A stretch of DNA of 64,000 nt from a virus (Duplodnaviria > Caudoviricetes): IMG/VR virus record IMGVR_UViG_642555159_000003, positions 25,885-89,884 of that record, one strand, 5' to 3'. The first letter of the stretch is position 1, and every line of letters begins with the position of its first letter. The notes beneath the pieces are model-generated. The model made no database searches and had not been told where the DNA came from. It saw only the letters and a program-made list of their open reading frames with translations. A program made the translations under genes and the position numbers. Below are positions 24,408 to 64,000 of this stretch, piece after piece.

Positions 24408-24452
24408 CTTCTAAGCCGTGGGTCGCAGGTTCGAATCCTGCAGGGCGCGCCA
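24408..24452 (+). pseudogene. argU: 3' half of tRNA-Arg(UCU), att core (attR of prophage 1 / attL of element 2)
   Basis: CTTCTAAGCCGTGGGTCGCAGGTTCGAATCCTGCAGGGCGCGCCA: anticodon loop, T-arm and CCA; 5' half absent. Confidence 0.85.
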
Positions 24453-24566
24453 TTTTAAAGTCTATCCACCTCTCTCAAAGTCTACTAATCACTGATATAC
24501 CAATGGATTAAGAGAAATTTCATTATCTCAAAGTCTCTTATCGTCTATTGAAATCTACGTTCATCT

Positions 24567-24615
24567 GGGGGTACATTCGGGGGTATATTCAGGTTCAATG
24601 AAGTGAGATACCCCC
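24567..24615. repeat. Integrase arm-type repeats upstream of int
   Basis: GGGGGTAC (24567), GGGGGTAT (24579), inverted ATACCCCC (24608), typical of P4-family attL arms. Confidence 0.6.
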
Positions 24616-24618
24616 AAT

Positions 24619-25806
24619 ATGAAGCTAACAGCCCGCCAGATCAGTACGGCGAAACCAACGGAGAAACCATATAAGCTGTCTGATGGCGGTGGTTTGTATC
24701 TGCTGGTTAACCCGAACGGCTCCCGATACTGGCGTATGAAGTATCGCTATGCAGGTAAGGAGAAACTTCTTTCCATTGGCGTTTATCCTGATGTGACGCT
24801 TGCGGAAGCAAGAGACAAACGAACCCAGGCTAAACGTATACTTGCTGCGGGCGATGATCCATCTGAAGTAAAACAGGCCGAGAGAGAGGCAAAGAATCTT
24901 GCGGTTAATAACAGCTTTGAACTTCTGGCGCTTGAATGGCATGAGCATAAAAAGCCAAACTGGTCTTCAGGCTATGCTGACGACATTCTTGAATATCTGC
25001 GAAAAGACATATTCCCATATATCGGTAAGAAAGCCATAACAGATATTAAGCCGATGACTATGCTCTCCGTGCTGAAAAAAATGGAGGATCGTGGTGTACT
25101 GGATAAGCTAAAAAAAACTAGGCAAGCCTGCCGACAGATATTTACTTATGCAATTATAACCGGCAGAGCTGAGTTTAATCCCGTAACGGATTTAGCTGGA
25201 GCGCTGAAAACGCCAAAGCAACAACATTTCCCGCATCTGATGCCAACTCAGATTGGCCCCTTCATTCATGCTGTTAATACCTACTCAGGCAGTAAAGTAA
25301 CCCGCATCGCTACGCTATTACTTATGTATACCAGTGTCAGGACAATCGAGTTAAGGGCTTCTGAATGGACTGAGTTCGACCTGGACAACGATTTGTGGCA
25401 GATCCCCAAGGAACGTATGAAGATGCGCCGTCCTCACCTTGTACCGCTTTCAAGGCAGGTTAAATCTCATCTGCTGGAACTAAAAAAGATCACTGGTTGG
25501 GGTAAGTATGTTTTCCCCGGTCGCAATGATGCCCACAAGCCAATGAGTGAGGCCAGTATTAATCAGGTGATTAAGCGCATAGGTTTTGCAGGAAAGGTCA
25601 CAGGACACGGATTCAGACACACCATGAGTACCATATTACATGAAAAGGGGTTCAACTCTGCATGGATAGAAGCACAACTGGCGCACGCTGACAGGAATAC
25701 TATCCGTGGAACTTACAATCATGCTCAGTACCTTGACGGTCGACGGGAGATGCTTCAGTGGTACGCTGACTATCTGGATGAGTTGGTTGGAAAAGTGGTG
25801 GGTTAA
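24619..25806 (+). CDS. int: P4-family tyrosine integrase
   Basis: MKLTARQI...KPYKLSDGGGLYL arm-binding domain; catalytic R (SVRTIEL), HGFRH, LAH, YNHAQY. Confidence 0.97.
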   Translation: MKLTARQISTAKPTEKPYKLSDGGGLYLLVNPNGSRYWRMKYRYAGKEKLLSIGVYPDVTLAEARDKRTQAKRILAAGDDPSEVKQAEREAKNLAVNNSFELLALEWHEHKKPNWSSGYADDILEYLRKDIFPYIGKKAITDIKPMTMLSVLKKMEDRGVLDKLKKTRQACRQIFTYAIITGRAEFNPVTDLAGALKTPKQQHFPHLMPTQIGPFIHAVNTYSGSKVTRIATLLLMYTSVRTIELRASEWTEFDLDNDLWQIPKERMKMRRPHLVPLSRQVKSHLLELKKITGWGKYVFPGRNDAHKPMSEASINQVIKRIGFAGKVTGHGFRHTMSTILHEKGFNSAWIEAQLAHADRNTIRGTYNHAQYLDGRREMLQWYADYLDELVGKVVG

Positions 25807-25834
25807 CCTGTTTTCTTCATGTGTGAGGAAGAGT

Positions 25835-25959
25835 AGTTGTTCCACTTGTTCAAGTTGTTCCAGATATATAGATATGAAGGTAACTTACTGTTTTTATTTA
25901 TATATGCATTTTCAAGATGGAACAACTGTGGAACAACTTTCTGCTGTTTTGGAACAACT
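25835..25959. repeat. Convergent 10-bp iteron array around AT-rich core; candidate replication origin
   Basis: AGTTGTTCCA at 25835 and 25853 (plus partial CTTGTTCA between); reverse complement TGGAACAACT at 25918, 25929, 25950. Confidence 0.65.
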
Positions 25960-26146
25960 TCACGAACGTGATTTTGTATCATAGTTGTCAATTGACTGTT
26001 TATGCATACAGCTACTCTAGACATGTATACCTCAGTAGACGATAATTCCCCCACAGAAAAAGGCTATGTCTAGGCTGATCCCCGAAAACCTGCACACCTC
26101 TGCGGGCCGGCATAGTCGCTAAGATTAGAGGGCGCGAGGTGGCGTT

Positions 26147-26452
26147 ATGCTGGATATAATTTCTGACTTGAAAGAGAAAAAGAGTGAAGTAATTTCCTTA
26201 CATGAGGTGATTACTACTCTGAAGTCTCAGTCCCCTCAGGCAACGTTACCACAGATAGCTGAGTGGCTTTTGATACAACTTGCTGATAATCCTGAGTCCC
26301 CAGAAATGGGAATATTAACGGTTGGTGGAGGTTTTGAATCTATTTTACCGGAATGGATGAGTGCACAAAATGAACAGTATCTTTCACTGAGAGATTTATT
26401 AATTGAGTTGTACCGAAGCAACGGTATTTGGCCGGGGGATATTCCGTTTTGA
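26147..26452 (+). CDS. Hypothetical protein (satellite cargo between int and alpA)
   Basis: 101 aa, GAGG RBS, AT-rich. Confidence 0.7.
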   Translation: MLDIISDLKEKKSEVISLHEVITTLKSQSPQATLPQIAEWLLIQLADNPESPEMGILTVGGGFESILPEWMSAQNEQYLSLRDLLIELYRSNGIWPGDIPF

Positions 26453-26883
26453 ATAAGAAATTTGATATTACTGAAGAAACCTACATGGGATATGGTTTTA
26501 AACGTCAAGAGTTGACGGACTTTTTTCATTCAAAAGGTAAGCACGTTAACTTTGGCGTGCCACCGATGTCTTTTGAAGATTCAAGTGATTTGGACGGGGC
26601 CTTAACTCTTAATGATGCTTTAGCTGAAGTGGAATCTTTGAAGTCGAGGGTCAGAGATTTAGAAGCACTTTTGCCAATCCTTCTTGGTGAGTACAGAAAT
26701 GACGATCCACTTCTGTTAGCCATACAAATAAGAAATAAAGATTGGCTAGACTATGACCCTGACAACGATAGAGCTACAAGGGGAAATCAGGCGGCAATAA
26801 TTCATGACCTCGAAAAACGTGGTTTCCCTAAGCGTCAGGCGGAAGCTATTGAACTAGTCGCTTGCCCTATTAAGAGAGGGTAA
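26428..26883 (+). CDS. Hypothetical protein with coiled coil (start uncertain, possibly TTG at 26449)
   Basis: Overlaps stop of previous gene (TTGA); C-terminal AEAIELVACPIKR motif. Confidence 0.65.
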   Translation: MAGGYSVLNKKFDITEETYMGYGFKRQELTDFFHSKGKHVNFGVPPMSFEDSSDLDGALTLNDALAEVESLKSRVRDLEALLPILLGEYRNDDPLLLAIQIRNKDWLDYDPDNDRATRGNQAAIIHDLEKRGFPKRQAEAIELVACPIKRG

Positions 26884-26891: not shown

Positions 26892-27033
26892 CCCTCAGGG
26901 CTATATGAGCGTAATAACGCCATCCCTGAGGGTGATTTGTCCGTTAACCCTAAGGGTAACGGAGCCATAAAATTAAAAACTACTCCATACCCTCAGGGGT
27001 AACTATCACCAACCTCCCTCTAGCTTGAGGGTA
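26892..27033. promoter_or_regulatory. Cluster of CCCTNAGGG palindromes upstream of alpA
   Basis: CCCTCAGGG 26892, CCCTGAGGG 26924, CCCTAAGGG 26948, CCCTCAGGG 26990, half-site TGAGGG ~27026. Confidence 0.6.
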
Positions 27034-27102: not shown

Positions 27103-27300
27103 ATGTCGCAATCATTCATTCGTCTTTCTGAAGTCCAGCGCCGTACTGGTTACAGTAAAGCTTGGATCTACCGCTTGATTGGACAGGGTAAATTCCCTTC
27201 CTCTGTCAAAATTGGCTCTCGCGCCATTGCTTTCGTCGAAAGTGAAGTTGATGACTGGATTAACCAGCGCATCGAAGAGTCGCGTAAGGAGGTTGCCTGA
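27103..27300 (+). CDS. alpA: AlpA-family regulator / recombination directionality factor
   Basis: FIRLSEVQRRTGYSKAWIYRLIGQGKFPSSVKIGSRAIAFVESEVDDWINQRI. Confidence 0.95.
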   Translation: MSQSFIRLSEVQRRTGYSKAWIYRLIGQGKFPSSVKIGSRAIAFVESEVDDWINQRIEESRKEVA

Positions 27301-27401: not shown

Positions 27402-27998
27402 ATGAATAAATTAAATGCCCTCTCCGGGCAGGGACTCACTCAACCTGAAATCGGTCAGGCAGCTATTTCTGCACCTACTATGAGCAGTCTTGAAATGGTC
27501 GATTACATTAATGCAAATCGTAAAGCAAAAGCGGAAGCAGAGGGATTATCGTTCCCATGCAAGAAATACCGCAAGCTATCCCATAAGAACTTTATGCCGA
27601 AAGTGCTGAGGGTGTTGGGTGAAATTCAATCGGCTAAATTTTTAGCCGATTACATTGATGACAAAGGACGTACTCAGCCCTGCTACAACTTCCCTAAACG
27701 TGAAGCTTGCTTAATGGCCATGAGTTACGACTACGAGCTGCAAGCTCAAATCTTCGATTACATGACAGAACTCGAGCGTAACATTAATGGGGATCTCGTC
27801 TACACAATTCAGCAGATGGAAAATATCGTGTCAATTGCTCGAAAAGCATCTGATGAGGATTCGTCGGATGCTGGACGCCGATTACGCCAACGCCAGGATG
27901 ATTTGCCTTTACTCGATAAGGCAGAAAAGCTGGTGAAGGATTTTCGCCAGTTTTCGTTTGAGCTGATTGGTGGCGGGAAAGTCGAGGTATCTGAATGA
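27402..27998 (+). CDS. Rha-family regulator
   Basis: TMSSLEMVDYIN...HKNFMPKV...YIDDKGRTQPCYNFPKREACLMAMSY. Confidence 0.85.
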   Translation: MNKLNALSGQGLTQPEIGQAAISAPTMSSLEMVDYINANRKAKAEAEGLSFPCKKYRKLSHKNFMPKVLRVLGEIQSAKFLADYIDDKGRTQPCYNFPKREACLMAMSYDYELQAQIFDYMTELERNINGDLVYTIQQMENIVSIARKASDEDSSDAGRRLRQRQDDLPLLDKAEKLVKDFRQFSFELIGGGKVEVSE

Positions 27999-28077
27999 GT
28001 AACGTTACTGGCAGCACACCTTATGCGCCCAAAGAAAAAGGCAACGCTGCGAACGTTGCCTTTGGGAACCAGATTGA

Positions 28078-28410
28078 TCACTGGTCGGGATTGTCTTTCG
28101 ATTTTTTGCGCTGCCGGGCTTCCAGTTCGGCATGTGCAATATCGACTATAGCACGAATGTCGGTACCGGCTCTCTCTCCGATTTCTTCAATCTTGGCGAG
28201 CGTCTCAAGCGCCCTGTTTAGCCCGATCTGTAAGCTTTCAGGGCCAGTTGCTGTCGCTTGCCGCCGGGCTACTTCGCCGCGCATCGCTGTAACGATAAAC
28301 CCAGCGTTGCTTTCATCCGGCCTTTTTAATGCTTCCATGCTATCGATTACATCGTGCGGGATACGTATAGATATCTGTTTTGACTTGTCGTTAACGGTAT
28401 TTTTGACCAT
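28078..28410 (-). CDS. Ribbon-helix-helix regulator (YlcI/YnfO-like)
   Basis: SKQISIRIPHDVIDSMEAL...SNAGFIVTAMRGEVARR; divergent from icd operon. Confidence 0.75.
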   Translation of the reverse strand: MVKNTVNDKSKQISIRIPHDVIDSMEALKRPDESNAGFIVTAMRGEVARRQATATGPESLQIGLNRALETLAKIEEIGERAGTDIRAIVDIAHAELEARQRKKSKDNPDQ

Positions 28411-28432
28411 GAGTGTATACCTGATGATTTGG

Positions 28433-28531
28433 TGTGATTCAGTATACACAAAAAATGAATCACAAAAAGGCTTGACATGTGATTCACTAGAAACTAATTT
28501 AAATCACACATCATTGTTATGGTGTGATTCA
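28433..28531. promoter_or_regulatory. Divergent promoter with five TGTGATTCA-type operator boxes
   Basis: TGTGATTCA 28433, 28478, 28523; inverted TGAATCACA 28456, TAAATCACA 28500; TTGACA(28472)-17-TAATTT(28495). Confidence 0.75.
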
Positions 28532-28603
28532 CAAAGGCAACGCCCCGGAGTGCTTGGAACCACTACCGAGGCGTCTAACCACAACGTTAGTTGGAGTAAC
28601 ATT

Positions 28604-28891
28604 ATGGCATGTTCACATGATACCCAAATTCGCCCGGAGTTTACATACCTGTTTCTGGGCACCCCGTCCGATAAACCCAACACCACGCCCGTTGTTCTTC
28701 GTGCGGAAGCCAACAATGAGCAGCAGGCACGTTCTCATTTTCTGAACTGGAATCTGGTATTTGCCGCGCAGATCCGCACTAAGGCTCCATGCCGTCTCCA
28801 GTTGATGGACGGTGGCGATCGCCTTTCCTGGATTTTTGAGCAACTTCCCGATGTCTGCACCTCCGCTGTTCAGGAGGTGGCGTATGTCTGA
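28604..28891 (+). CDS. Icd-like host cell division inhibitor
   Basis: FTYLFLG...VLRAEANNEQQARSHF..WNLVFAAQIR pattern; GGAG RBS. Confidence 0.75.
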   Translation: MACSHDTQIRPEFTYLFLGTPSDKPNTTPVVLRAEANNEQQARSHFLNWNLVFAAQIRTKAPCRLQLMDGGDRLSWIFEQLPDVCTSAVQEVAYV

Positions 28892-29045
28892 ACTCACCAG
28901 AACTGATGCGCTTATCGAAATTGAGGCACTGGCGTGCGCGGCACAGTTTCTGACTGATACGCCAGCAAGGATTGAACTGGCAGGCGCTCTTATGTCGCAG
29001 ATTGAGGAAACCGCTAAAAAAGCGCAGGAGGCCAGCGATGACTGA
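28884..29045 (+). CDS. Small hypothetical protein (53 aa)
   Basis: GGAGG RBS, overlapping stop/start. Confidence 0.65.
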   Translation: MSELTRTDALIEIEALACAAQFLTDTPARIELAGALMSQIEETAKKAQEASDD

Positions 29046-29436
29046 CATTCTCGAAATTATCCGTCCGCACGTTCATCTGGAGCGCCAGGGAAAAAATTAC
29101 GTCGGTCTTTGCCCGTTTCATCAGGAGAAAACGCCGTCATTCACAGTTGATCCGTCAGAACAGACTTTTTGCTGTCTGGGTTGCGGTGCCCACGGTGATG
29201 CCGGGGAGTTTGCAAAACTGATGCTGATGAAAGGAGCAGGTGCGGTTCTGAATGTAAACCTTCATGTCGCCCCGAATTTCACTGGTCGCGTTGTCGTTCA
29301 GCTTAAAGAGGGTCGCCATGTATGCGATTACCCGCTGGTGAATGGTGAGCATATCGCAACGCTGCCGTCATTTCTGGAAATGGCTCGCCTGGCTTGGTGG
29401 TCTGTCACACCTGAACAGGGGGTATGCAATGCGTAA
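29038..29436 (+). CDS. CHC2 (DnaG-type) zinc-finger protein with extra C-terminal domain
   Basis: GLCPFHQEKTPSFTV...FCCLGCGAHGDA. Confidence 0.85.
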   Translation: MTDILEIIRPHVHLERQGKNYVGLCPFHQEKTPSFTVDPSEQTFCCLGCGAHGDAGEFAKLMLMKGAGAVLNVNLHVAPNFTGRVVVQLKEGRHVCDYPLVNGEHIATLPSFLEMARLAWWSVTPEQGVCNA

Positions 29437-29599: not shown

Positions 29600-29819
29600 G
29601 CCACGCATTTACCGCACTGATGATGATGTGTTGCTGAATCTGCAACGCTCACTGGATCTGATGAACTGCGCCATACGCATTCTCGGTTCCGGGGAGAAAA
29701 ATATGCAGATGTACGTGATGTCTCTCGTTGACGTTGCAGCCCATCTGACACAGCAATCAACAAATTCTCTCGATTTGGGTGAGCAGGCAGATAACGAACA
29801 TGGGGTGTGCAATGGCTGA
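29592..29819 (+). CDS. Small hypothetical protein (75 aa)
   Basis: GGAGG RBS, overlapping stop/start. Confidence 0.6.
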   Translation: MDKPRIYRTDDDVLLNLQRSLDLMNCAIRILGSGEKNMQMYVMSLVDVAAHLTQQSTNSLDLGEQADNEHGVCNG

Positions 29820-30120
29820 TAAAACCAACCTGATTACATCGGGTGGCGTAGTGACACATATGGGTACTAACCAGGAGCTGGCTATTGACTCAGATACATT
29901 ACTGCAAATGGTCAATGAAGCTCGCAAGGAATGCGGCGAAAAACCAATCCGCAATAACGATTTCATCGCTCGTATCAAAGACGAGTTGGAGGGAGAGGAC
30001 TACGAAATTTTCGTGGTTCAAAATTTGAACAATACCACCTCCGGAAAAGCAGTTATGCGCGTGAGTCAGGCTATCCGCGTTGTCGCTCGGTCGAAAGTTG
30101 TTCTTCGTTCACTGACTTGA
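29812..30120 (+). CDS. Probably truncated antirepressor-type N-terminal domain
   Basis: IDSDTLLQMVNEARKECGE...RNNDFIARIKDELEGE; ends shortly after the conserved helix. Confidence 0.55.
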   Translation: MADKTNLITSGGVVTHMGTNQELAIDSDTLLQMVNEARKECGEKPIRNNDFIARIKDELEGEDYEIFVVQNLNNTTSGKAVMRVSQAIRVVARSKVVLRSLT

Positions 30121-30130
30121 GGAAAGAGTT

Positions 30131-30925
30131 ATGGCTATGAAAACTGAATTAGCAACGGTAGCAGCACGTGATTTACAGATCATTGAGTATCGCGGCCAAC
30201 GAGTAGTGACGAACGAGCAGCTTGCAGCAGGATACGGCACTGATGTCGCCAACATCAAAATGAACTATTCGCGCAACGCCGATCGCTTTGTAGAAGGAAA
30301 ACACTTCTTCAAAGTTACCGGCGAAGAGTTAGCAAATTTGCGAGTAACTTTTAGTTACCTGCAAATTTCCAGCAAAACCCGCTCTCTTATGTTGTGGACA
30401 GAACGCGGCGCGGCGAACCACGCAAAGATGCTGGAAACCGATCAGGCGTGGAGCTACCACGAAGACCTGGTGGAATTCTACTTCACTCAGCGTGATGCGA
30501 TTGCCGCGCCAGTACAACGCGAACTTTCCACAATGGAAATCCTGCAGATTGCTATGGCATCTGAACAAGGTCGCCTGGCGGCAGAAGAACGCGCCAAAAA
30601 CGCAGAACGTACCAAATCACAAATCAGCCGTAAGCGCGAAGCCTCGGCACTCGGAAAGCTCAGTGCTGCAACCCGCCGTTGTCGTGATCTGGAAGAACGT
30701 CTGGGAGAAAGTGAAAAACATGCAACGATTACCCGTGTAGAGAAGGCTACAGGTAAGAAAGGGAAATACAACTATGTCCTGCTGCGACGGTGGTGCAAGG
30801 AAAACGGTATGCATCCCCGTGATGTTCCGGATGAGCGTTACGGCAGCGTTAAGTCCTGGCCCGCTGAAGCATGGCTGGCTGTTTACGGGACTGACCTGAA
30901 AAAACTGGCCGGAGGTAATCTATGA
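30131..30925 (+). CDS. ORF6N-domain protein
   Basis: IEYRGQRVVTNEQLAAGYGT...FVEGKHFF...LWTERGAANHAKMLETDQAW. Confidence 0.85.
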   Translation: MAMKTELATVAARDLQIIEYRGQRVVTNEQLAAGYGTDVANIKMNYSRNADRFVEGKHFFKVTGEELANLRVTFSYLQISSKTRSLMLWTERGAANHAKMLETDQAWSYHEDLVEFYFTQRDAIAAPVQRELSTMEILQIAMASEQGRLAAEERAKNAERTKSQISRKREASALGKLSAATRRCRDLEERLGESEKHATITRVEKATGKKGKYNYVLLRRWCKENGMHPRDVPDERYGSVKSWPAEAWLAVYGTDLKKLAGGNL

Positions 30926-31227
30926 GCAATATAGAACAAATTCTTTCCCGCTGTGATTTACAGAAGGAAGATGATGAATCCCTGGCCAGTATCCGCATGC
31001 ACTCCGAAGGCGCATACGAGGGGATTATGTCGGGGCTGGGGGCCATTGGTAATGCTGTGTTCTGGGCCTGTGATAATAAAAATTACACCGACGATATGGC
31101 GCGTGATGATTTGTATCGTCTGGGTGAAATGCTGATGTATTTACCCGGTATAGCTTTCGCGCTGAAATTTAATGCAGATGAGGCTGACTTCAGTATTAAC
31201 GAACGAAGGCGGAAGTCAGGAAAATAA
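30922..31227 (+). CDS. Hypothetical satellite protein
   Basis: GGAGG RBS, ATGA overlap. Confidence 0.7.
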   Translation: MSNIEQILSRCDLQKEDDESLASIRMHSEGAYEGIMSGLGAIGNAVFWACDNKNYTDDMARDDLYRLGEMLMYLPGIAFALKFNADEADFSINERRRKSGK

Positions 31228-31316
31228 TTAAGACGTAAATAAACCTTATTCATTCTGGAATTAACGGCTATCGGGTCGGGGTAATGCTCGCCCTGATGGC
31301 AGGAGAAACCGTATTT

Positions 31317-31700
31317 ATGACCCGGAAAACGCATAGTCTCGAAATAAACCGCAAGCATATTGCTGATGCCTTTATTAATTATTGCCGCTTGCGTAACAGC
31401 GGTTCGGCGATTCTTAACCTGATGGTAAAAAAACAGGTTGTGGCACTGGATAACCTGACTGTGGCCGCAGTGGAGAACTGCCTCATCCACAGTATTGAGT
31501 TGCAGTGTTTCAGTAAGCTCGGGCGTGACAGGGGACTGCCCATGCTGGTGGAAACCTACTCAGGCATGATGACCAAAGATAACAGTCGTCTGACACCGGA
31601 AGGTGTGGAGTTTATGAATGAAGTCATGACAGCAGCAATCACAGCAGCACTTGCTAATCCGAAAGATAATAATTTTGGTCTGGAGATTTATCATGCGTAA
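31317..31700 (+). CDS. Hypothetical satellite protein
   Basis: AGGAG RBS; in pre-primase operon. Confidence 0.65.
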   Translation: MTRKTHSLEINRKHIADAFINYCRLRNSGSAILNLMVKKQVVALDNLTVAAVENCLIHSIELQCFSKLGRDRGLPMLVETYSGMMTKDNSRLTPEGVEFMNEVMTAAITAALANPKDNNFGLEIYHA

Positions 31701-32340
31701 TACACAATTAAATCAATTTTCGGCTGAATGTAACCAGACAGATAAATATATTCGTATAAATCTCCTGGAAGCAGAAAAAAACTTTGTGCTTTATTTCCAT
31801 CGTCAACAGAATGAAAGCGACAAAATAGCTCCTGATGAAGCTATTCAGAAACTCGAAAGTGGGGAGTATGACGCCGATTTAGTTGAGGGACTGCGTCTGG
31901 TTGCAGCCCTGTGGCACGGTATGCACACCGGATGTTTTATGCTGTCAGATGAGCAAAACCTTGTGCTCTGGCGCTGGACGGTGGCTGCTGTGTATGTCTG
32001 TGAGATGCTCGATACAAACGGAGCCGTCGAAGTGAAAAATGAGCAGGGAGAACCTGAGGAGGTCGCCGTTTATAGCGGAGAGCATGGCGGTATTGTTATT
32101 TATCCGTGGTCGGAGCGTTTTTCCCTGGCAAATCATGTCGAGGGGCTGGCATATGAAATGTTTCCTGTGAATAAAGCACCGGAAATAGCATCGGCTATCT
32201 ATCGAAGTATGCTCGAAATCAGCTCAGAAACAGGTATCGGTATGTCTGAAGAGGGGCTTAAAGGCCTGGCGCTTCTTCACGACAGTTTCATTGAAACGCT
32301 GAAGACGGAAGGCATTCCGGCGGCGCCAGTCGCACACTGA
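31693..32340 (+). CDS. Hypothetical satellite protein preceding replicase
   Basis: GGAG RBS; 215 aa. Confidence 0.7.
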   Translation: MRNTQLNQFSAECNQTDKYIRINLLEAEKNFVLYFHRQQNESDKIAPDEAIQKLESGEYDADLVEGLRLVAALWHGMHTGCFMLSDEQNLVLWRWTVAAVYVCEMLDTNGAVEVKNEQGEPEEVAVYSGEHGGIVIYPWSERFSLANHVEGLAYEMFPVNKAPEIASAIYRSMLEISSETGIGMSEEGLKGLALLHDSFIETLKTEGIPAAPVAH

Positions 32341-55244: not shown

Positions 55245-55250
55245 ATCATC

Positions 55251-55988
55251 ATGAAAGAACAGGATATTCTGGCGCACGCCCGACGGTGTGCGCCTGCGGA
55301 GTCGTGCGGCTTCGTGGTGAGAACACAGGCGGGAGAACGGTATCTCCCCTGTGTGAATATTTCTGCCGCGCCGGAGGATTATTTCCGTATGGCGCCGGAG
55401 GACTGGCTGAGGGCTGAAACGCAGGGGGATATTGTGACGCTGGTTCACAGCCATCCTGGCGGCCAGCCGTATCTGAGCGATGTGGACCGCAGGCTGCAGG
55501 TTCAAAGCGACCTGCCGTGGTGGCTGGTATGCGCCGGCCAGGTACATAAATTCCGCTGTGTGCCACACCTGACCGGACGGCATTTTAAACATGGGGTTTT
55601 TGACTGTTACACGCTGTTCCGTGATGCCTATCATCTGGCGGGGATTGATATGCCGGATTTTCACCGGGACGACGACTGGTGGCGGCATGGTGACAATCTC
55701 TATCTGGATAATCTGGAGACGACGGGGTTTTACCGTGTCAGCGCAGCCAGTGCGCAGCCCGGCGACGTGTTGATTTGCTGCTTTGGCTCCTCCGTTCCGA
55801 ACCACGCAGCGATTTACTGCGGCGACGGAGAGCTGCTGCACCATATTCCTGAACAACTGAGTAAACGTGAGAGGTATACCGACAAATGGCAACGACGCAC
55901 GCACTCCATCTGGCGACACCGGGCATGGCGCGCATCTGCCTTTACGGGGATCTGCAACGATTTTGCCGCCGCGTCAGCCTGCAGGTAG
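55251..55988 (+). CDS. Tail assembly protein K
   Basis: ESCG, HSHPGG..LS..D, DCYTLFRDAYH. Confidence 0.92.
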   Translation: MKEQDILAHARRCAPAESCGFVVRTQAGERYLPCVNISAAPEDYFRMAPEDWLRAETQGDIVTLVHSHPGGQPYLSDVDRRLQVQSDLPWWLVCAGQVHKFRCVPHLTGRHFKHGVFDCYTLFRDAYHLAGIDMPDFHRDDDWWRHGDNLYLDNLETTGFYRVSAASAQPGDVLICCFGSSVPNHAAIYCGDGELLHHIPEQLSKRERYTDKWQRRTHSIWRHRAWRASAFTGICNDFAAASACR

Positions 55989-56533
55989 CCAGTGGTGCTG
56001 AAGCTGTCCGGGCACTGGCGGTACAGTTGCCCGGTCTCCGGCAGAAACTGAACGACGGCTGGTATCAGGTACGCATAGCCGGAGACGATGTTACGGCTGA
56101 TACCCTGACAACCAGCCTGCATGACCCGCTGCCGCCTGGCGCGGTGATTCATATTGTGCCGCGTCTGGCCGGGGCCAAATCTGGCGGGGTGTTTCAGGCG
56201 GTGCTTGGTGCGGCGCTGATTGCCGTTGCCTGGTGGAACCCGGCAGGCTGGCTGGGAGCGGCGGCGGTATCCGGTATGTATATGACCGGGGCGTCGATGG
56301 TTCTGGGCGGTGTGGCGCAGATGCTGGCACCAAAACCTAAAATGTCCGAAATGAGGCAGACCGATAACGGCAGGCAGAACACGTATTTCTCGTCGCTGGA
56401 TAATATGGTTGCCAACGGTAACACGTTGCCGGTGCTGTACGGCGAGATGCAGGTGGGGTCACGCGTGATTTCCCAGGAAGTCAGTACCGCTGATGAAGGA
56501 GATGGTGGTCAGGTTGTGGTGATTGGCCGCTGA
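55886..56533 (+). CDS. Tail assembly protein I
   Basis: ICLYGDLQRF, LPVLYGEMQVGSRVIS. Confidence 0.9.
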   Translation: MATTHALHLATPGMARICLYGDLQRFCRRVSLQVASGAEAVRALAVQLPGLRQKLNDGWYQVRIAGDDVTADTLTTSLHDPLPPGAVIHIVPRLAGAKSGGVFQAVLGAALIAVAWWNPAGWLGAAAVSGMYMTGASMVLGGVAQMLAPKPKMSEMRQTDNGRQNTYFSSLDNMVANGNTLPVLYGEMQVGSRVISQEVSTADEGDGGQVVVIGR

Positions 56534-56594
56534 CAACAGAACAGATTCAGACAGAACCGCCTCCGGGCGGTTTTGTCGTTTTACGGGGTAATAA

Positions 56595-59500
56595 ATGGGA
56601 AAGGGCGGCGGAAAAGGGCATACGCCCCGCGAGGCACCGGATAACCTTAAATCCACGCAGCTGCTGAGCGTCATCGATGCCATCAGCGAGGGACCGATAG
56701 AAGGCCCGGTGAACGGTCTGCAAAGTGTTCTGGTAAACCAGACGCCGGTGGTGGACCGCGACGGTAACACGAATATCCACGGCGTGAAGGTGGTATACCG
56801 CGTCGGTGAGCAGGAACAGACCCCGCTGGAGGGATTTGAATCGTCCGGCGCCGAGACGGTGCTTGGTGTACAGGTCAAATACGACAATCCGGTGACCAAA
56901 ACCATCACGGCTGCAAATATTGACCGCCTGCGTTTTACGTTCGGCGTGCAGTCACTGGTGGAGGCCAACAGCAAGGGCGACCGCAATCCGACATCGGTCA
57001 GGCTGCAAATCCATCTTGAGCGCTATGGTCAGTGGGTGGTGGAAAAAGAAATTACGATTACCGGGAAAACAACCACACAGTATCTGGCCTCGGTGATAGT
57101 GGATAATCTCCCTCCCCGGCCATTCGGTATCCGGATGGTACGTGTGACGGCAGACAGTACCACTGACCAGTTACAGAACAACACGGTCTGGTCGTCGTAT
57201 ACCGAGATTATTGATGTCCGGCAGCGCTATCCCAACACCGCCGTAATTGGCCTGCAGGTGGCGTCTGAGCAGTTCGGCAGCCAGCAGGTGACGCGAAATT
57301 ACCATTTTTTCGGGCGGATTATTCAGGTGCCGTCGAATTATGATCCGGTAGCGCGAACCTACAGCGGCATCTGGGACGGCACGTTCAAGCCTGCATACAG
57401 CAATAATCCGGCGTGGTGTCTCTGGGATATGCTGACTCATCCCCGTTATGGCATGGGACAGCGAATCGGCGCGGCGGACGTGGACAGGTGGGCGCTGTAT
57501 GCAATAGGCCAGTACTGCGACCAGATGGTCCCTGACGGATTCGGCGGGACAGAGCCGCGTATGACCTTTAATGCGTATCTGGCACAGCAGCGTAAGGCGT
57601 GGGATGTGCTGACCGACTTCTGCTCCGCCATGCGTTGTATGCCGGTGTGGAACGGGCAGAGGCTGACCTTCGTGCAGGACAGGCCCTCGGATACAGTCTG
57701 GACCTATACCCGCAGCAATGTGGTAATGCCGGATGAGGGTACACCGTTCCGTTACAGCTTCAGTACGCGGAAGGACCGCCATAATGCGGTAGAGGTGAAC
57801 TGGATCGACCCTGATAATGGCTGGCAGACATCCACGGAACTGGTGGAAGACACGGTCGCCATCAGTCACTACGGACGCAATCTGGTAAAAATGGATGCGT
57901 TTGGCTGTACCAGTCGCGGGCAGGCACACCGCGCCGGGCTGTGGCTGATAAAAACGGAGCTGCTGGAAACTCAGACGGTTGATTTTAGTGTGGGGGCGGA
58001 GGGGCTGCGCCACGTTCCCGGTGATGTGATTGAGGTTTGCGACGAGGATTATGCCGGCATCAGCCTGGGCGGGCGGATTCTGTCCGTTGACCGCGCCCGC
58101 CGCATTCTGACCCTTGACAGGGAGATTACCCTGCCGTCGTCCGGCACCACGCTGATAAGCCTGGTGGATGGCGAAGGCTTGCCGGTCAGCGTGGACGTGC
58201 AGTCTGTTACCGACGGTGTGCAGGTTCAGGTCAGCCGGATACCGGACGGCGTGGCGGAATACAGCGTCTGGGGGCTGAAACTGCCGTCGCTGCGCCAGCG
58301 TCTCTTCCGGTGTGTGGCTGTCCGGGAAAACGACGACGGAACGTATGCCATCACCGCCGTACAGCATGTGCCGGAAAAAGAGTCCATCGTGGACAACGGG
58401 GCATCATTCGATCCGCAACCCGGAACGATTCACGGCACCGTTCCCCCGGCGATACAACATCTGACCACAGAAATTCTGGCGGAGGAGGGACAGTATCAGG
58501 TACTGGCGCGCTGGGACACACCGCGAGTCGTTAAGGGCGTCTCGTTTTCTTTGCGCCTGAACGTGGCGGCGGAAGATGGCAGTGACCGGCTGGTAAGCAG
58601 CGCAGGAACGCCGGATACGCAGTACCGGTTCCGGGGGCTGACGCCGGGGCGCTATACCCTGTCCGTCAGGGCGGTGAACAGCCAGGGACAACAGGGATAC
58701 CCGGCCAGCATACAGTTCAGCATCTCCGCGCCGGCGGCACCATCATTTATCGAACTCACCCCTGGCTATTTCCAGATTACAGCCACACCGCGTCAGGCGG
58801 TATACGACCCGACGGTGCAGTATGAGTTCTGGTTTTCAGACGCGCAGATTACGGATATCCATCAGGTGGAAAACGCCGCACGATATCTGGGAACGGCGCT
58901 GTACTGGATAGCGGCCAGTGTGAATATCAGGCCCGGCAGGGATTACTATTTTTATATCCGGGCGGTAAATCAGGTCGGTAAATCCGCATTCGTGGAGGCG
59001 ACCGGGCAGGCCAGCAACGATGCCGCAGGCTATCTGGATTTTTTCAAAGGGCAGATAACTGAAAGTCACCTGGGTAAGGAACTGCTGGAGAAGGTGGAAC
59101 TGACGGAGGATAACGCCAGCAAACTGCAGCAGTTTTCGAAGGAGTGGCAGGATGCTAACGATAAATGGAACGCCATGTGGGGCGTCAAAATAGAGCAGAC
59201 CAAAGACGGCAAATATTATGTGGCCGGACTTGGACTGAGCATGGAAGACACGCCTGACGGGAAGATAAGCCAGTTCCTGGTGGCGGCGGATCGCATTGCT
59301 TATATTAACCCGGCAAACGGAAACGAGACGCCCGGATTCGTCATGCAGGGCGACCAGATAATCATGAATGAGGCGTTCCTGAAATATCTGAGCGCGCCGA
59401 CCATTACCAGTGGCGGGAATCCTCCAGCATTTTCCCTGACGCCGGATGGAAAGCTGACTGCGAAAAATGCGGATATCAGCGGGCATATCAACGCTGTATC

Positions 59501-59957
59501 TGGCTCGTTTACGGGAGAAATCAATGCCACCTCCGGTAAGTTTTCTGGCGTGATAGAAGCAAGAGAGTTTGTCGGTGATATCTGCGGCTCAAAAGTCATG
59601 CAGGGCGTGAACATCAGGGCGACGAACGACGAACGCAGCACCTCAACACGGTATACCGACAGCGCCACCTATCAGATAGGGAAAACCATCACGGTGATGG
59701 CTAACTGTGAGCGTAACGGTGGCACCGGTGCCATCACCGTCACGATAAATATTAACGGCCAGGTGAAAACGGCGGAGGTTATCCCGTATACCGCAGGGCT
59801 TCCGGCCATGTATCAGACCGTTGTCTTTTCGGTCTACACCACTTCACCTGTCGTGGATATCAGCGTTTCTCTGAGGGTTCGTGGGCAGTACACCACGTCT
59901 GCTTCCGTCTGGCCGCTGGTGATGGTTTCCCGGTCGGGGAGTAACTTCACAAACTGA
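56595..59957 (+). CDS. Central tail fibre/host specificity protein J
   Basis: [38 protein letters not shown]. Confidence 0.96.
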
Positions 59958-59995
59958 CCGGATTTTCGGTCCCTTTCGTTTAACGAGGAACAGAT

Positions 59996-60238
59996 ATGAC
60001 TATGTCGCGCGTAATTTCTCTGGCGGCAGGGCTTTCCCTGTCCGTTTTATTTTCCACTGCTGCCGTTGCCGATAACGGAAGAGGAAGCGGCAACAGCAAT
60101 ATTGAAAACCAGACCCGGATTTATACCGGCACCGACCGTGGGCAGAAACAGCACCGCGAGGCAAAGGGAAAAACAATCACGCGGAGCGTCCAGTGTTCTC
60201 TGCCGGCATATTTACGTGACCCGGATAATCAGTGCTGA
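59996..60238 (+). CDS. Small exported protein between J and stf
   Basis: Signal peptide ending AVA-D; two C-terminal Cys; followed by terminator GCCTGC-CTGC-GGGCGGGC+T. Confidence 0.75.
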   Translation: MTMSRVISLAAGLSLSVLFSTAAVADNGRGSGNSNIENQTRIYTGTDRGQKQHREAKGKTITRSVQCSLPAYLRDPDNQC

Positions 60239-60291
60239 GATGTGAATGAATCTGAAGCCTGCCTGCGGGCGGGCTTTTTTATGGAGGTAAT

Positions 60292-62970
60292 ATGCCAGTA
60301 CTTATTTCCGGCGTACTGAAAGATGCCACGGGAACGCCGGTACAGAACTGCACCATTCAGCTGAAGGCCTGCCGGACCAGTACGACGGTGGTCGTGAATA
60401 CGGTGGCATCGGAAAATCCGGATGACGCCGGGCGCTACAGCATGGATGTGGAGCAGGGGCAGTACACTGTCACGCTCCTGGTGGAAGGGTATCCCCCGTC
60501 ACATGCCGGAGTTATTACGGTTTACGATGATTCAAAGCCGGGCACCCTGAATGATTTTCTGGGGGCCATGACGGAAGACGACGTCCGCCCGGAGGCGCTG
60601 CGGCGTTTTGAGGCGATGGTGGAAGAAGTTGCCCGCCAGGCATCGGAGGCATCGCGGAATGCCACCTCCGCAGGGCAGGCATCTGAACAGGCGCAGACAT
60701 CAGCAGGTCAGGCAGCGGAAAGCGCCACGGCAGCAGTGAATGCAGCCGGAGCGGCAGAAGCATCAGCCACACAGGCAGCCTCATCCGCAGCATCTGCGGA
60801 GAGCAGCGCAGGTACGGCGACCACAAAAGCCGGGGAGGCATCAGCCAGCGCGGCGTCGGCTGACACAGCCAGAACGGCAGCAGCCGCATCGGCAGCCGCA
60901 GCGAAAACATCTGAAGCGAATGCAGATGCCTCCCGTACTGCCGCCGGCGATTCAGCTGCTGCCGCAGCCGCCAGCGCGACGGCGGCGCAGACATCAGCAG
61001 CGCGCGCCGGAGCATCCGAAACCGCCGCGAAGATGTCAGAAACGCAGGCGGCCTCCAGTGCCGGTGATGCAGGTGCGTCAGCCACTGCGGCGGCAGCGTC
61101 GGAAAAGGCGGCAGCCGCATCGGCAGCCGCAGCAAAAATATCTGAGACAAACGCAGCAACGTCAGCAAGTACAGCAGCAGCCAGCGCAACAGCCGCCTCG
61201 TCATCAGCATCGGAGGCATCCAATCACGCCGCCGCATCTGATACCAGCGCATCACTGGCGGCGCAAAGCAGTACTGCTGCCGGAGCAGCAGCCACCAGAG
61301 CAGAAGATGCCGCAAAACGGGCAGAAGACATCGCGGACGTGATTTCCCTGGAAGATGCCAGCCTGACGAAAAAAGGTATCGTTAAGTTAAGCAGTGCCAC
61401 GGACAGTGACAGCGAAGCGCTGGCAGCCACACCAAAGGCGGTAAAAACCGTTATGGGTGAGGTGCAGACCAAAGCGCCGCTGGACAGCCCGGCATTCACT
61501 GGAACGCCGACCACACCGACGCCGCCAGACGATGCTAAAGGGCTTCAGACAGCAAACGCGGAGTTTGTCCGCAAACTGATTGCCGCGCTGGTTGGTTCCG
61601 TACCGGAGTCACTGGACACCCTGCAGGAACTGGCGGACGCGCTGGGTAACGATCCGAGCTTTGCCACCACTGTACTGAATAAACTGGCGGGCAAGCAGCC
61701 GCTGGACGATACACTGACGGCGCTGTCAGGAAAAAGCGTTGACGGTCTTATCGAATACGTTGGTTTACGGGAAACCATAAATCACGCCGCCGATGCATTA
61801 CTAAAATCGCAGAACGGCGGAGATATTCAGGACAAAAAACAATTTGCGAGAACTATCGGCGCTGTGACTTCAACTACAATTTCACTTGGTGAATCAGGCT
61901 GGTTCAAAATCGCCACGGTTGTAATGCCGCAGGCTACATCAACAGCGGTGATTAAACTGTACGGTGGGGCGGGGTTTAACGCTGGTTCACCTGAACAGGC
62001 GGCAATCAGCGAACTGGTATTGCGTGCCAGTAATGGTTCACCTGTTGGAATAACTGCCACGTTGTGGAGACGCTCGCCTGCTGCGGCTAACGAGGTCGCA
62101 TGGGTTAATACATCAGGCGACACCTACGATATTTATATTAATATCGGCCAGTATGCGTACTGGTTAATTGCGCAATATGATTACACCGGTAATGCAAATG
62201 TCACGCTGCACAGTACACCTGAATATTCATCAGTCCAGCCGGGGGACTCAACCAGCGGTCAGACATATACACTGTTTAATAGCCTGATGAAACCCACTCC
62301 CGAAGATGTCGGAGCGCTGTCAGTTAATGGAGGAAGGCTAAACGGCCCGTTAGGCATTGGTACTGACAATGCGCTTGGTGGTAATTCGATTGTGTTCGGC
62401 GATAACGACACAGGAATTAAACAGAACGGTGACGGGATACTGGATACGTTTGCGAATAGCCAGCACACCGTTCGTGTCGCTCCCGGTGAAATGCAGGTTC
62501 TGGGAGCCATTCGCGCAGGCAATGCCAAACGAATGACCATGACTAGCTCAAATAACTCCGTGCTGAATGCTCAATTTCATTTGTGGGGTGACGGAAATCG
62601 ACCAACGGTTATTGAGCTGGATGACGACCAGGGATGGCATTTATACAGCCAGCGTAATACCGATGGCAGTATTCAGTTTGTTGTTAATGGACAAGTTATT
62701 CCGGATAATTACGGTAATTTCGACGCCCGTTATTTAACATCAGGAAACGTATATACAAAAGGCGAATCAGATAATCGTTATGTCCAAAATATCCAGCGTG
62801 GCGCCCCAGTATGGCCGGGCAAAGTAGATGAATATGGACCTGCAGAAGCGCCTGCTGGTTGCTTTTTAACACAAGCCAGACATGACCCAACAACAGCATA
62901 CGGTGTGACATTTGCGTATCGACCGTTGCAAATGTGGGTGGGTAATGGCTGGCGTACAATTAATGGATGA
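60292..62970 (+). CDS. Side tail fibre (Stf-like)
   Basis: Lambda stf N-terminus (ISGVLKD...GRYSMDVE.GQY), Ala/Ser repeats, EDASLTKKGIVKLSSAT repeat. Confidence 0.92.
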   Translation: MPVLISGVLKDATGTPVQNCTIQLKACRTSTTVVVNTVASENPDDAGRYSMDVEQGQYTVTLLVEGYPPSHAGVITVYDDSKPGTLNDFLGAMTEDDVRPEALRRFEAMVEEVARQASEASRNATSAGQASEQAQTSAGQAAESATAAVNAAGAAEASATQAASSAASAESSAGTATTKAGEASASAASADTARTAAAASAAAAKTSEANADASRTAAGDSAAAAAASATAAQTSAARAGASETAAKMSETQAASSAGDAGASATAAAASEKAAAASAAAAKISETNAATSASTAAASATAASSSASEASNHAAASDTSASLAAQSSTAAGAAATRAEDAAKRAEDIADVISLEDASLTKKGIVKLSSATDSDSEALAATPKAVKTVMGEVQTKAPLDSPAFTGTPTTPTPPDDAKGLQTANAEFVRKLIAALVGSVPESLDTLQELADALGNDPSFATTVLNKLAGKQPLDDTLTALSGKSVDGLIEYVGLRETINHAADALLKSQNGGDIQDKKQFARTIGAVTSTTISLGESGWFKIATVVMPQATSTAVIKLYGGAGFNAGSPEQAAISELVLRASNGSPVGITATLWRRSPAAANEVAWVNTSGDTYDIYINIGQYAYWLIAQYDYTGNANVTLHSTPEYSSVQPGDSTSGQTYTLFNSLMKPTPEDVGALSVNGGRLNGPLGIGTDNALGGNSIVFGDNDTGIKQNGDGILDTFANSQHTVRVAPGEMQVLGAIRAGNAKRMTMTSSNNSVLNAQFHLWGDGNRPTVIELDDDQGWHLYSQRNTDGSIQFVVNGQVIPDNYGNFDARYLTSGNVYTKGESDNRYVQNIQRGAPVWPGKVDEYGPAEAPAGCFLTQARHDPTTAYGVTFAYRPLQMWVGNGWRTING

Positions 62971-62984
62971 TTAAGGAAACTATA

Positions 62985-63503
62985 ATGGAATTAAAAAACG
63001 TAACCAGATACACTCCTGATGACCCGGATTATGATAACAACTTTCTGTATTTTCGTAGTGAAGATGGTCAGGATTTTTATGAGTCGCTGAGTAAATTCAC
63101 GAAAAAATATAAGTTGTGTATTGACTCCGAAAATATAATCCGTTCCGTATCAGAAGATGTCTCTCGTCTTTATCCGGCTGGTTTTTCAGTTGTTGAGGTT
63201 AACAAGTTACCTGCAGGATTTAATATCTATGGCGACTGGAAATATTCGAACGGCGCTGTTGTCGCTGTTCCCGTTGATTATCATGCAAAAGCCGAAACCA
63301 CACGTCAGAAGCTACTTACCGATGCTAACAGCACCATTGTCGACTGGCGAACCGAACTGGCGTTGGGGGATATCAGCGACGATGATAGGGCAAGCCTGAC
63401 TAAATGGATGGTCTATATCAGGGCGCTGAAAATGCTGGATTTGAGCGATGTGAAAGATGAGGCCACCTTCACAGCAATCAGGTGGCCTGCATTACCACAG
63501 TAA
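62985..63503 (+). CDS. Tail fibre assembly protein (Tfa)
   Basis: FRSEDGQDFYE...W..YIRALKMLD...IRWP. Confidence 0.9.
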   Translation: MELKNVTRYTPDDPDYDNNFLYFRSEDGQDFYESLSKFTKKYKLCIDSENIIRSVSEDVSRLYPAGFSVVEVNKLPAGFNIYGDWKYSNGAVVAVPVDYHAKAETTRQKLLTDANSTIVDWRTELALGDISDDDRASLTKWMVYIRALKMLDLSDVKDEATFTAIRWPALPQ

Positions 63504-63689
63504 TAACTACTGGCTGGTTTCTCAGGAGGCATGGGCCAGTAAGTCAGTAATATGACGTTGTGAAAAAACAGGCTGGCGTTAATAAAATACACCAGCCTGA
63601 AGTAATATTCAGTTCAGGAGGAACTGATGAAGCATAATAACCAGATATACCATCAGTACTGATATGGTTGTTACAGCCTTCTGTAAAAA

Positions 63690-63915
63690 TTAACAACCAC
63701 AAATCTGACACCACTCCGGTGGTTTTTCTATATCTGGTGGCCAGTTGTCACACCAGGGGGGACGAATAAATGGGGCGGGTATTGGCGGCAGTCTACTGGA
63801 GGCGGATTTTGTATTATCTGGTGGGGGGGGTTGTATCACTAGCGGCCATCGCCGATGCCGAAAAGGCTGTAGCCGACAACACCAGAAGCAATGGGGAAAA
63901 TATACGATGTCTCAT
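63690..63915 (-). pseudogene. pagK: PagK/PagJ-family small secreted protein, +1 frameshift in C8 tract
   Basis: MRHRIFSPLLLVLSATAFSASAMAASDTTP then stop; removing one C gives ...PPDNTK...RPPWCDNWPPDIEKPPEWCQICGC* (74 aa). Confidence 0.8.
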
Positions 63916-64000
63916 AATATCACCCGTGAATATTCAGACTATCCTTACTGTTGACTTCCTTCATTTCCAGCATAGTTCATACTTCATTGTCATTGAATAA

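Follow-up and report, generated by a model that had tools for sequence, protein, structure and literature searches.

A probable lambdoid temperate prophage with a left arm on the plan of Gram-negative phage-inducible chromosomal islands, from a recurrent lineage of Enterobacterales

Introduction

For phage-inducible chromosomal islands (PICIs), Tommasini, Mageeney and Williams (2023) described four zones as well as 'elongated' forms that have captured up to 17 late genes (PMC10111431). The tail genes M and L were present in 0 of about 1,400 satellites in that work, and prophages were characterized by the lack of AlpA and by an outward-facing integrase gene, int (PMC10111431). SatelliteFinder treats tails and holins as forbidden components, and the origin of satellites was called open in the same context (PMC10085698). 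Capsid-forming PICIs (cf-PICIs), in which a YlcI/YnfO plus Icd pair is annotated, have been described as intermediates between satellites and phages (PMC13612085). Satellite censuses sort by rule, AlpA together with an inward-facing int indicating a satellite and tail or holin genes indicating a prophage (PMC10111431, PMC10085698). Here we report on a locus, termed element 2, that carries both of these signatures and blurs the line between satellites and phages; satellite finders therefore miss a lineage of this kind, and it is classed as ordinary prophage. Element 2 occupies positions 24408-64000 of the window, by which we mean the whole stretch of 64,000 nucleotides that was analyzed, i.e., the final 64 kb of the 89,884-bp IMG/VR provirus record IMGVR_UViG_642555159_000003, which stops at window position 64000. 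Its upstream neighbor is referred to as prophage 1.

Our analysis indicates that element 2 is probably one integrated unit, namely a complete-looking lambdoid temperate siphovirus prophage of the Fels-1/Gifsy type whose left arm follows the plan of Gram-negative PICIs. This arm is composed of three zones, one for integration (inward-facing P4-family int plus AlpA), a Bro/antirepressor zone, and one for replication (DUF927 protein, SSB and a candidate convergent-repeat origin near int). Element 2 belongs to a recurrent lineage in Enterobacterales that keeps this chassis and, like lambdoid phages, exchanges its modules for integrase, immunity, Q and virion. The lineage is apparently undescribed, as in the literature on PICIs and satellites we found no description of one that combines this chassis with a full late operon.

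Results

A search of IMG/VR with the replicase of the window gave 80 loci, which a table of tblastn matches splits into two groups. Group A (L003-L011, L030 and L033) consists of proviruses of about 38-49 kb where complete. Group B, the remaining loci, has int and alpA (about 74-80%), a replicase of about 65-72% identity, ssb and often a homolog of HTH306, the 306-residue helix-turn-helix (HTH) protein encoded before the antiterminator gene Q in the window; Q, lysis and terminase genes are missing in this group. The order DUF927-ssb-HTH306-Q is found with the same spacing in L003-L008, L011, L030 and L033. Identity to the window ranges from 64 to 99% for Q and from 26 to 100% for the late genes of group A, and in four group A loci the same position is taken by another P4-family integrase (27-28% identical) along with a divergent AlpA. 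Alleles of HTH306 and Q reassort, as illustrated by L003 (HTH306 100%, Q 71%) and L007 (HTH306 64%, Q 94%). Among the species-representative genomes searched, Yokenella regensburgei has a full tRNA-Arg gene with the inward-facing int directly after it and a chassis of about 80% identity; its late set is full, and its terL, portal, ClpP-capsid, tape-measure and J genes show about 32-68% identity to the window. The gene order is also the same in Serratia, where the alleles form a third set. Yokenella and Serratia each have a single tail-L gene in the genome, co-oriented with the chassis int and some 32 kb downstream of it, and AlpA occurs together with Phage_tail_L in four further provirus records. 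CheckV estimated several group A records to be 92-100% complete; others that lack tail L are 88-99% complete and presumably have another tail type. In complete E. coli genomes, Q and the tRNA fragment alone gave matches and no group A element was found. The original prediction had proposed to ask whether the junction between chassis and late genes recurs elsewhere, and it does: about 11 IMG/VR proviruses have it, as do the genomes of Yokenella and Serratia, and the alleles of integrase, immunity, Q and late genes differ among them. As side observations, the early region of the Yokenella element L086 is separated from its late region by four tRNA genes (Met, Ser, Thr, Gly; 15524-15830), and a Mutator-family insertion sequence transposase gene (3045-4253, minus strand) sits between int and alpA of the group A relative L005.

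The ends of these elements bear on the question of whether chassis and late region form a single unit. Where both ends of a group B element can be seen, direct repeats delimit it at a distance of 12-18.5 kb. The satellites L029 and L122 (int about 74% identical to that of the window) carry the doubled arm motif GGGGGTACATTCGGGGGTA at both ends, 13.5-15 kb apart. A second doubled arm motif was found neither in the remaining 39.4 kb of the window nor in 41 kb of the Yokenella contig nor in the 41-kb record L033 (G005), in which int directly follows a complete tRNA-Arg gene; likewise, no satellite-type right end of the chassis was found before the late genes. In Serratia, a 22-bp exact repeat without flanking similarity is located 288 bp upstream of int and 41,956 bp away, 6.2 kb beyond J. 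This pair is an attachment site (att) pair that encloses chassis and late region, from int through J. No second att copy was detected in the provirus records L004, L008, L009, L010 and L033, and the Yokenella contig ends before attR. The exact tail-fiber assembly protein (Tfa) of the window is found only on short contigs common to Gifsy-type prophages and is uninformative with respect to attR.

In a FastTree phylogeny of the replicase, the root of which is unknown, all group A rows but Serratia, which is placed apart, form a clade with 100% support that lies nested within satellite-type rows. The group B label 'satellite' is imperfect in this tree, as its member L028, a neighbor of the clade, has non-lambdoid tail/baseplate genes downstream. 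For these two reasons, the unknown root and the genes of L028, we draw no conclusion on a satellite-to-phage direction or its reverse. In L028, a metagenome contig, tape-measure-like, gpV-apex, baseplate-hub and Dit-like genes (15757-19859) begin no more than about 3.6 kb after the int-alpA-RHH-DUF927 chassis, and the chassis may thus also be joined to non-lambdoid tail modules.

The left flank of element 2 is shared with prophage 1. A complete tRNA-Arg(TCT) gene (argU) lies near the start of the record, at record positions 852-928, outside the window and upstream of prophage 1, whose outward-facing int adjoins this tRNA and whose tail-fiber genes end at about window position 24011. The 47-nt argU fragment at the left edge of element 2 (Table 1) is the shared att, being attR of prophage 1 and the attL side of element 2. 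Because the window has this 3' fragment only and the full tRNA is upstream, the arrangement is a tandem array of argU, prophage 1, 47-bp att and element 2. The description of int as tRNA-anchored therefore has to be corrected, since ARAGORN finds no tRNA in the window and the only argU sequence there is the fragment common with prophage 1. The host is evidently Salmonella, given the late region's 91-98% identity to Fels-1 and Gifsy-1 and the Rfam matches to isrG and STnc100. Prophage 1 further gave a match to the P22 sar RNA and one to sRNA-Xcc1 (window 7673-7741 and 11848-11932), and its antirepressor genes could cross-talk with element 2.

At the junction itself, the gene immediately before Q encodes an HTH306 homolog of 45-48% identity in Fels-1, Cronobacter phage ENT39118 and E. 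coli phi467, all of them classical lambdoids that combine an outward int and xis with an HTH CI/Cro pair, a helicase and a toprim primase, and in phage Fraca a primase-helicase gene adjoins Q. The adjacency of replicase and Q is thus ordinary, and the unusual part of element 2 is everything to the left of it. As HTH306 is also found after ssb in satellites, it appears a plausible ancient recombination point. These findings modify the original prediction in several respects. Its satellite-type order int, alpA, icd-like gene, DUF927 and ssb was confirmed by Pfam, PHROG and NCBIfam, and its statement that the join shows neither att nor terminator holds as well, in that 35841-35935 contains no att-like repeat of at least 11 nt from the attL zone and no convincing plus-strand terminator. 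The 93-bp distance between the satellite-type block and Q is correct, with the qualification that the gene before Q is not ssb but HTH306, which is paired with Q in Fels-1 too; similarly, most genes of the supposed single-strand block are on the plus strand, but the ribbon-helix-helix (RHH) gene (28410-28078) and the 155-residue gene after Q are on the minus strand. A recent recombinational graft at 35.8-35.9 kb, also considered there, is not borne out: recent exchange is seen only in the tail module, and the junction recurs in relatives.

The predicted series of Q, lysis, terS/terL, portal, ClpP-capsid and full tail genes was recovered, with the lysis genes assigned by synteny and DNA similarity. 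It is followed by the ORFs that the original prediction named stf and tfa, of which tfa matches Caudo_TAP. By Pfam the late module is complete (DUF1441, GpA, portal, ClpP plus capsid, tail tube, tape measure, Phage_min_tail for M, Phage_tail_L for L, K and J), and all late open reading frames (ORFs) are full length relative to the Pfam models. The Q-lysis-head region shows about 91% DNA identity to Fels-1 and the tail module (48857-61771) 97.9% to Gifsy-1, which is normal lambdoid mosaic exchange. The STnc100-type repeats between Q and the holin gene are probably part of a Q-dependent late leader; the relative L010 has one STnc100 copy at the same place (13886-14087). A full-length match to the small RNA isrG (320.7 bits) is antisense within the side-tail-fiber gene (61040-61318, minus strand). 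On contigs with identical Tfa (L143-L150), the next genes encode a PagK-like ORF, a Tox-PLDMTX-domain protein, an SRAP protein and GtgE, or else SopE and NleG-type proteins. Such cargo is the usual Gifsy-type region, and the window ends inside a PagK-like ORF.

In line with the original prediction, the ORFs that were scanned revealed neither a cI/cro pair nor N, O/P or Red genes. Its statement that no CI is recognizable is correct as far as homology goes, as the ORFs of 24.6-36 kb gave no CI/Cro family match, but a divergent RHH repressor/operator candidate region is present. The YlcI/YnfO-family RHH gene has an RHH-type N-terminus and its own strong terminator (28063-28037). Divergent from it, a near-consensus plus-strand promoter (28472-28500) heads an operon of icd, CHC2, DUF927, ssb, HTH306 and Q, and inverted TGTGATTCA boxes occupy the spacer and overlap the -10 of this promoter. 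Q, considered before as the last gene of the AlpA-side operon, is not simply that; it ends an operon that starts from a predicted promoter inside RHH-allele-specific operator boxes. In relatives, the TGTGATTCA boxes are present solely with RHH alleles of at least 92% identity, independent of the icd allele, and for each of six different RHH alleles a distinct set of repeated boxes occupies the same positions in a promoter scaffold that is itself conserved. At the sequence level, this covariation of box and allele is the pattern of a phage immunity region, making the YlcI/YnfO protein a candidate immunity repressor and the divergent repressor/operator region a candidate for the functional place of CI. 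The ORF 'o298' (27995-28891) was discarded as an artifact that joins the antisense of the RHH gene to the Icd-like gene. As a side observation, the satellites L014, L031, L068 and L082 have P4-type C4 and isrK RNAs in their Bro zone (about 4.6-6.2 kb), and at the equivalent place the window (28078-28531) and other group A elements have the YlcI/YnfO RHH gene with its operators; the two look like alternative immunity modules. No C4 or isrK match at E <= 1 was obtained within 24.3-38.7 kb of the window.

Further candidate control elements precede alpA. The LexA-type box of the window lies 67 nt upstream of the match to the int-alpA RNA motif, and five diverged relatives have such a box 60-73 nt upstream of the int-alpA RNA, i.e., with the same spacing; the motif scores above threshold at the same position in seven relatives. 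The fixed distance of 60-73 nt in six diverged elements suggests that this orphan RNA motif could be the leader of an SOS-controlled transcript. Of the two ORFs that follow, o101 (101 residues) gave no Pfam, PHROG or NCBIfam match and has homologs of 37-65% identity in related loci. Its neighbor o151 was equally without a match in these three collections, yielded hypothetical clusters only in an Atlas search, and its AlphaFold model (pLDDT 74) matched no PDB entry at E <= 0.001. Clusters of the palindrome CCCTNAGGG are present in 8/13 loci with an o151 homolog versus 0/67 without one, which would fit o151 as a candidate regulator acting at the alpA promoter. Between int and alpA, a convergent repeat cluster containing TTGTTC occurs once per element, in 11/14 group A loci versus 1/118 group B loci, and within group A it is found with either int/AlpA type. 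Because its distribution tracks the replicase clade, we read the window's cluster (25836-25958) as a candidate replication origin. AlpA operator arrays were considered for the TTGTTC repeats and are disfavored, as the cluster is single-copy and tracks the replicase clade, not the AlpA allele. Serratia has convergent GGTTCAGTCGGTTCA / TTGAACCGAC repeats between attL and int (G012:C13, reverse complement of 1-60000, about 10280-10400), which may correspond to this origin-like cluster although their sequence is different. All features are compiled in Table 1.

Table 1. Features of element 2 in window coordinates, with the basis of assignment.
Feature	Position	Strand	Basis or remark
argU 3' fragment, 47 nt of tRNA-Arg(TCT)	24408-24454	+	identical to 3' end of full tRNA; single copy in window
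Doubled arm-type motif GGGGGTACATTCGGGGGTA (GGGGGTAyATTyGGGGGTA)	24567-24585	+	beside int; once in window
P4-family tyrosine integrase, inward-facing	24619-25806	+	Pfam Arm-DNA-bind_3, Phage_int_M, Phage_integrase
Convergent 3+3 GTTGTTCCA/TGGAACAAC repeats around AT-rich core, candidate replication origin	25836-25958	.	repeat distribution
LexA-type box CTGTTTATGCATACAG abutting promoter-like TAGACA-17-GATAAT	25996-26046	+	sole perfect CTGT-N8-ACAG in window; promoter scan
int-alpA RNA motif	26063-26131	+	Rfam RF02996, 34.9 bits, E 4e-4; below gathering threshold of 35.8
LexA-type box plus int-alpA RNA in relatives	L068 1216-1343; L082 2665-2792; L031 2682-2822; L052 1231-1359; L028 5948-6078 (window 25996-26131)		
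o101, 101-residue ORF, translationally coupled to next gene	26147-26452	+	family without match
o151, 144-residue protein, conserved C-terminal four-helix domain	26449-26883	+	alignment; candidate regulator at alpA promoter
Four CCCTNAGGG palindromes around promoter-like TTAACC-18-TAAAAT, upstream of alpA	26892-26998	.	
AlpA-family regulator/excisionase	27103-27300	+	PF05930, E 9e-18
Rha/Ant-like (Bro-network) protein, candidate antirepressor	27402-27998	+	phrog_63 anti-repressor Ant, E 3e-13; weak Phage_pRha
YlcI/YnfO-family RHH gene, candidate immunity repressor	28078-28410	-	NCBIfam NF041551, 63.7 bits vs cutoff 30
Five TGTGATTCA/TGAATCACA boxes around plus-strand promoter TTGACA(28472)-17-TAATTT	28433-28531	.	
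Icd-like protein, first gene of rightward early operon	28604-28891	+	NCBIfam NF033153, 51.3 bits vs cutoff 25
CHC2 zinc-ribbon (DnaG-type) protein	28972-29436	+	PF01807, E 5e-24
Two Bro-network/ORF6N antirepressor-like genes	29779-30925	+	PF10543, E 7e-24; PHROG anti-repressor families
Three conserved ORFs without assigned function (101, 138, 229 residues)	30922-32340	+	phrog_6805, phrog_1737, phrog_1515; conserved across group A
DUF927 primase-helicase (replicase)	32350-34491	+	PF06048, E 3e-51; phrog_1139 DNA primase, E 1e-139
SSB	34488-34883	+	PF00436, phrog_44
HTH306, HTH protein before Q	34921-35841	+	phrog_6204, E 1.5e-83; tblastn
Antiterminator Q	35935-36738	+	PF03589, E 3e-54; starts 93 bp after HTH306
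155-residue gene after Q	36854-37321	-	phrog_22299; same synteny in Fels-1, ENT39118
Three STnc100-type RNA repeats, Q-holin leader	37480-38515	+	Rfam RF02076: 136.8, 58.3, 86.8 bits
Three lysis ORFs (holin, endolysin, Rz)	38562-40056	+	synteny and DNA match to annotated Fels-1, ST64B holin/endolysin/Rz
terS-like (DUF1441), terL (GpA), head-tail connector, lambda-type portal, ClpP-protease/capsid fusion	41559-47936	+	Pfam
Head-tail joining genes and complete lambda-type tail (V, G/T, H, M, L, K, I, J)	48001-59957	+	
Side tail fiber (stf) and tail-fiber assembly protein (tfa)	60292-63503	+	Caudo_TAP, Phage_fiber_2 on identical proteins elsewhere

Discussion

The recurrence of the layout, the lack of a satellite-type right end and the Serratia att pair speak for element 2 as one temperate prophage unit, and of the two alternatives in the original prediction, the temperate phage built on a satellite replicon and regulon is the better supported; such a phage may be autonomous. 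Several points weigh against the integrated-unit reading and against the regulatory roles attached to it. Among 50,697 phage records there is no isolated, plaque-forming phage with this chassis, and the lineage could accordingly be defective or helper-dependent for some step; the sole isolated-phage record with a close replicase is Klebsiella phage P12620-1, of 106 kb and almost unannotated. The attR of element 2 is not visible because the record ends at 64000, so that unit-hood is inferred from relatives, and the Serratia relative is distant, with a replicase of 56% identity and a different integrase. The roles of the RHH protein, o151, the LexA-type box and the origin derive solely from sequence covariation and position, and the loci in the co-occurrence tests are not phylogenetically independent. 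In addition, the LexA-type box does not overlap the predicted -35 but closely precedes it, o151 lacks a recognizable fold relative, and expression of alpA in EcCICFT073 was reported to be helper-dependent, not SOS-dependent (PMC6092414).

The alternative that survives best, which we nevertheless consider unlikely, is an extreme 'elongated PICI', i.e., a satellite that has captured an entire late operon and still relies on a helper in the same host, prophage 1 for instance, to be induced or to complete some other essential step. Zones 1-3 of element 2 fit the four-zone PICI plan, and capture of up to 17 late genes is documented (PMC10111431); the replicase clade is nested among satellite replicases, AlpA-driven cycles of E. 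coli PICIs require a helper signal (PMC6092414), the neighboring prophage 1 has a sar-type RNA regulatory module, and the missing isolated phage would be explained as well. Yet all functions that satellites normally borrow are encoded in element 2 in apparently intact form; it also comes with a repressor/operator region of its own, and a LexA-type box heads the alpA-side module. Moreover, the elements of Yokenella and Serratia hold the only tail-L gene of their genomes, implying that no lambda-tailed helper is present there.

Less likely still are two decayed neighbors, that is, a PICI-like satellite at argU next to the right half of a Fels-1/Gifsy-like prophage whose left arm was deleted across att, leaving a non-functional relic. 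Such a relic would have to account for a junction that recurs with reassorted HTH306, Q and late alleles, with two integrase types and in several genera, for the lack of att remnants at the join, for ORFs that are all full length versus the Pfam models, and for the single att pair that bounds the Serratia relative. What can be said for it is that HTH306-Q-lysis-head follows the Fels-1 plan and the tail is nearly that of Gifsy-1, that HTH306 homologs in satellites as well as lambdoids offer a recombination point, and that no attR is seen for the window. The lineage, which has spread and diversified, may well go back to an ancient fusion. A helper-embedded PICI (HE-PICI), sitting inside a lambdoid prophage at its early/late boundary, is already contradicted and can practically be dismissed: known HE-PICIs are co-oriented with the helper late genes and show the same zones (PMC10111431), but the left flank here is a tRNA att fragment plus the tail-fiber end of prophage 1 instead of lambdoid early genes, no late gene is split, Q and the late genes being intact, int directly follows a complete tRNA-Arg gene in Yokenella and G005, and the chassis has neither another att nor another arm motif on its right.

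Taking element 2 as one prophage, its lysogeny switch could operate as follows. The RHH protein encoded on the minus strand would hold lysogeny by binding the inverted TGTGATTCA boxes at the spacer and -10 of the 28472-28500 promoter, which would drive icd, the primase components, DUF927, ssb, HTH306 and finally Q, such that derepression would lead to Q-dependent late transcription. Induction would probably begin at the LexA-boxed promoter (25996-26046) with synthesis of the int-alpA leader RNA, o101 and o151; o151 would then act on the CCCTNAGGG sites at the alpA promoter, AlpA would serve as activator and excisionase, and the co-transcribed Rha/Ant-like protein would inactivate the RHH repressor. 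Going one step further, and only tentatively, one may envisage 'AlpA-type phages' as autonomous viruses of recent common ancestry with enterobacterial PICIs, in which a so far uncharacterized cascade lifts the RHH protein from the replication-Q operon: a promoter under host LexA would yield the int-alpA leader RNA, the swappable regulator o151, AlpA and the antirepressor, and these would act on the repressor. Shared ancestry of this kind could have arisen in two ways: satellites might have completed late-gene capture and regained independence, or a phage stock might have given rise to PICIs by loss of everything from Q rightward.

If the members of this lineage are functional phages, they would provide a concrete, experimentally tractable bridge on which the relationship between PICIs and phages could be studied, a candidate function as immunity repressor for the YlcI/YnfO family, and a link between the orphan Rfam int-alpA RNA motif and SOS control. 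If defective, they would still be the most complete example of late-gene capture so far.

Compared with Gram-negative PICIs of the EcCICFT073 type (PMC6092414, PMC10111431), element 2 is alike in its inward P4-family int plus AlpA, the Bro zone, the DUF927 plus SSB zone and the late zone that follows. As in these islands, int adjoins att, faces inward and precedes alpA, and the Bro zone precedes the replication zone, with the putative origin deduced from repeat distribution; the replicase is about 70% identical to that of true satellites of 12-18.5 kb. Element 2 departs from PICIs in size, at least 39.4 kb versus about 10-20 kb without tail or lysis genes, and in possessing Q, holin/endolysin/Rz, terminase, portal, capsid and a complete tail including M and L. 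An HE-PICI lies inside a lambdoid prophage and splits one of its late genes, which is not the situation here. In cf-PICIs, as in element 2, morphogenesis genes of phage origin are joined to an int-alpA-primase left arm; tails and holins are missing from cf-PICIs, whereas element 2 has both plus Q and falls outside this class.

Satellite P4 resembles element 2 in its P4-family int at a tRNA, an AlpA-family protein (P4 Vis), a Bro-network gene thereafter, an Icd-like gene, and a primase-helicase with short repeats as origin, the latter being a candidate in element 2. It differs in that element 2 has a DUF927-type replicase and its own full virion and lysis genes; psu-delta-sid was not detected in the ORFs scanned and neither CI RNA nor seqA was found, so that element 2 does not qualify as P4-like.

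The order HTH306 homolog, Q, small minus-strand gene, lysis, DUF1441/GpA, portal, ClpP-capsid and lambda-type tail is common to element 2, Fels-1 (NC_010391), Gifsy-1 (NC_010392) and ENT39118, and Q, lysis, terminase, head and tail stand in the lambda order of lambdoid temperate phages. In place of the outward int plus xis, HTH CI/Cro pair and helicase plus toprim primase of Fels-1 and ENT39118, element 2 has int-AlpA, the Bro zone, RHH/operator and DUF927-SSB. It thus lacks the divergent CI/Cro-type HTH immunity region of lambdoids, the functional place of which the RHH/operator module would take, as well as their outward int plus xis and their O/P or helicase/primase replication under pR. 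In the Gifsy phages, P22 immI and coliphage 186 Tum systems, a non-cleavable repressor is inactivated by a LexA-controlled antirepressor. The logic proposed for element 2 would be analogous, with a YlcI/YnfO RHH protein as the repressor and an SOS-linked module that adds AlpA and the int-alpA leader RNA.

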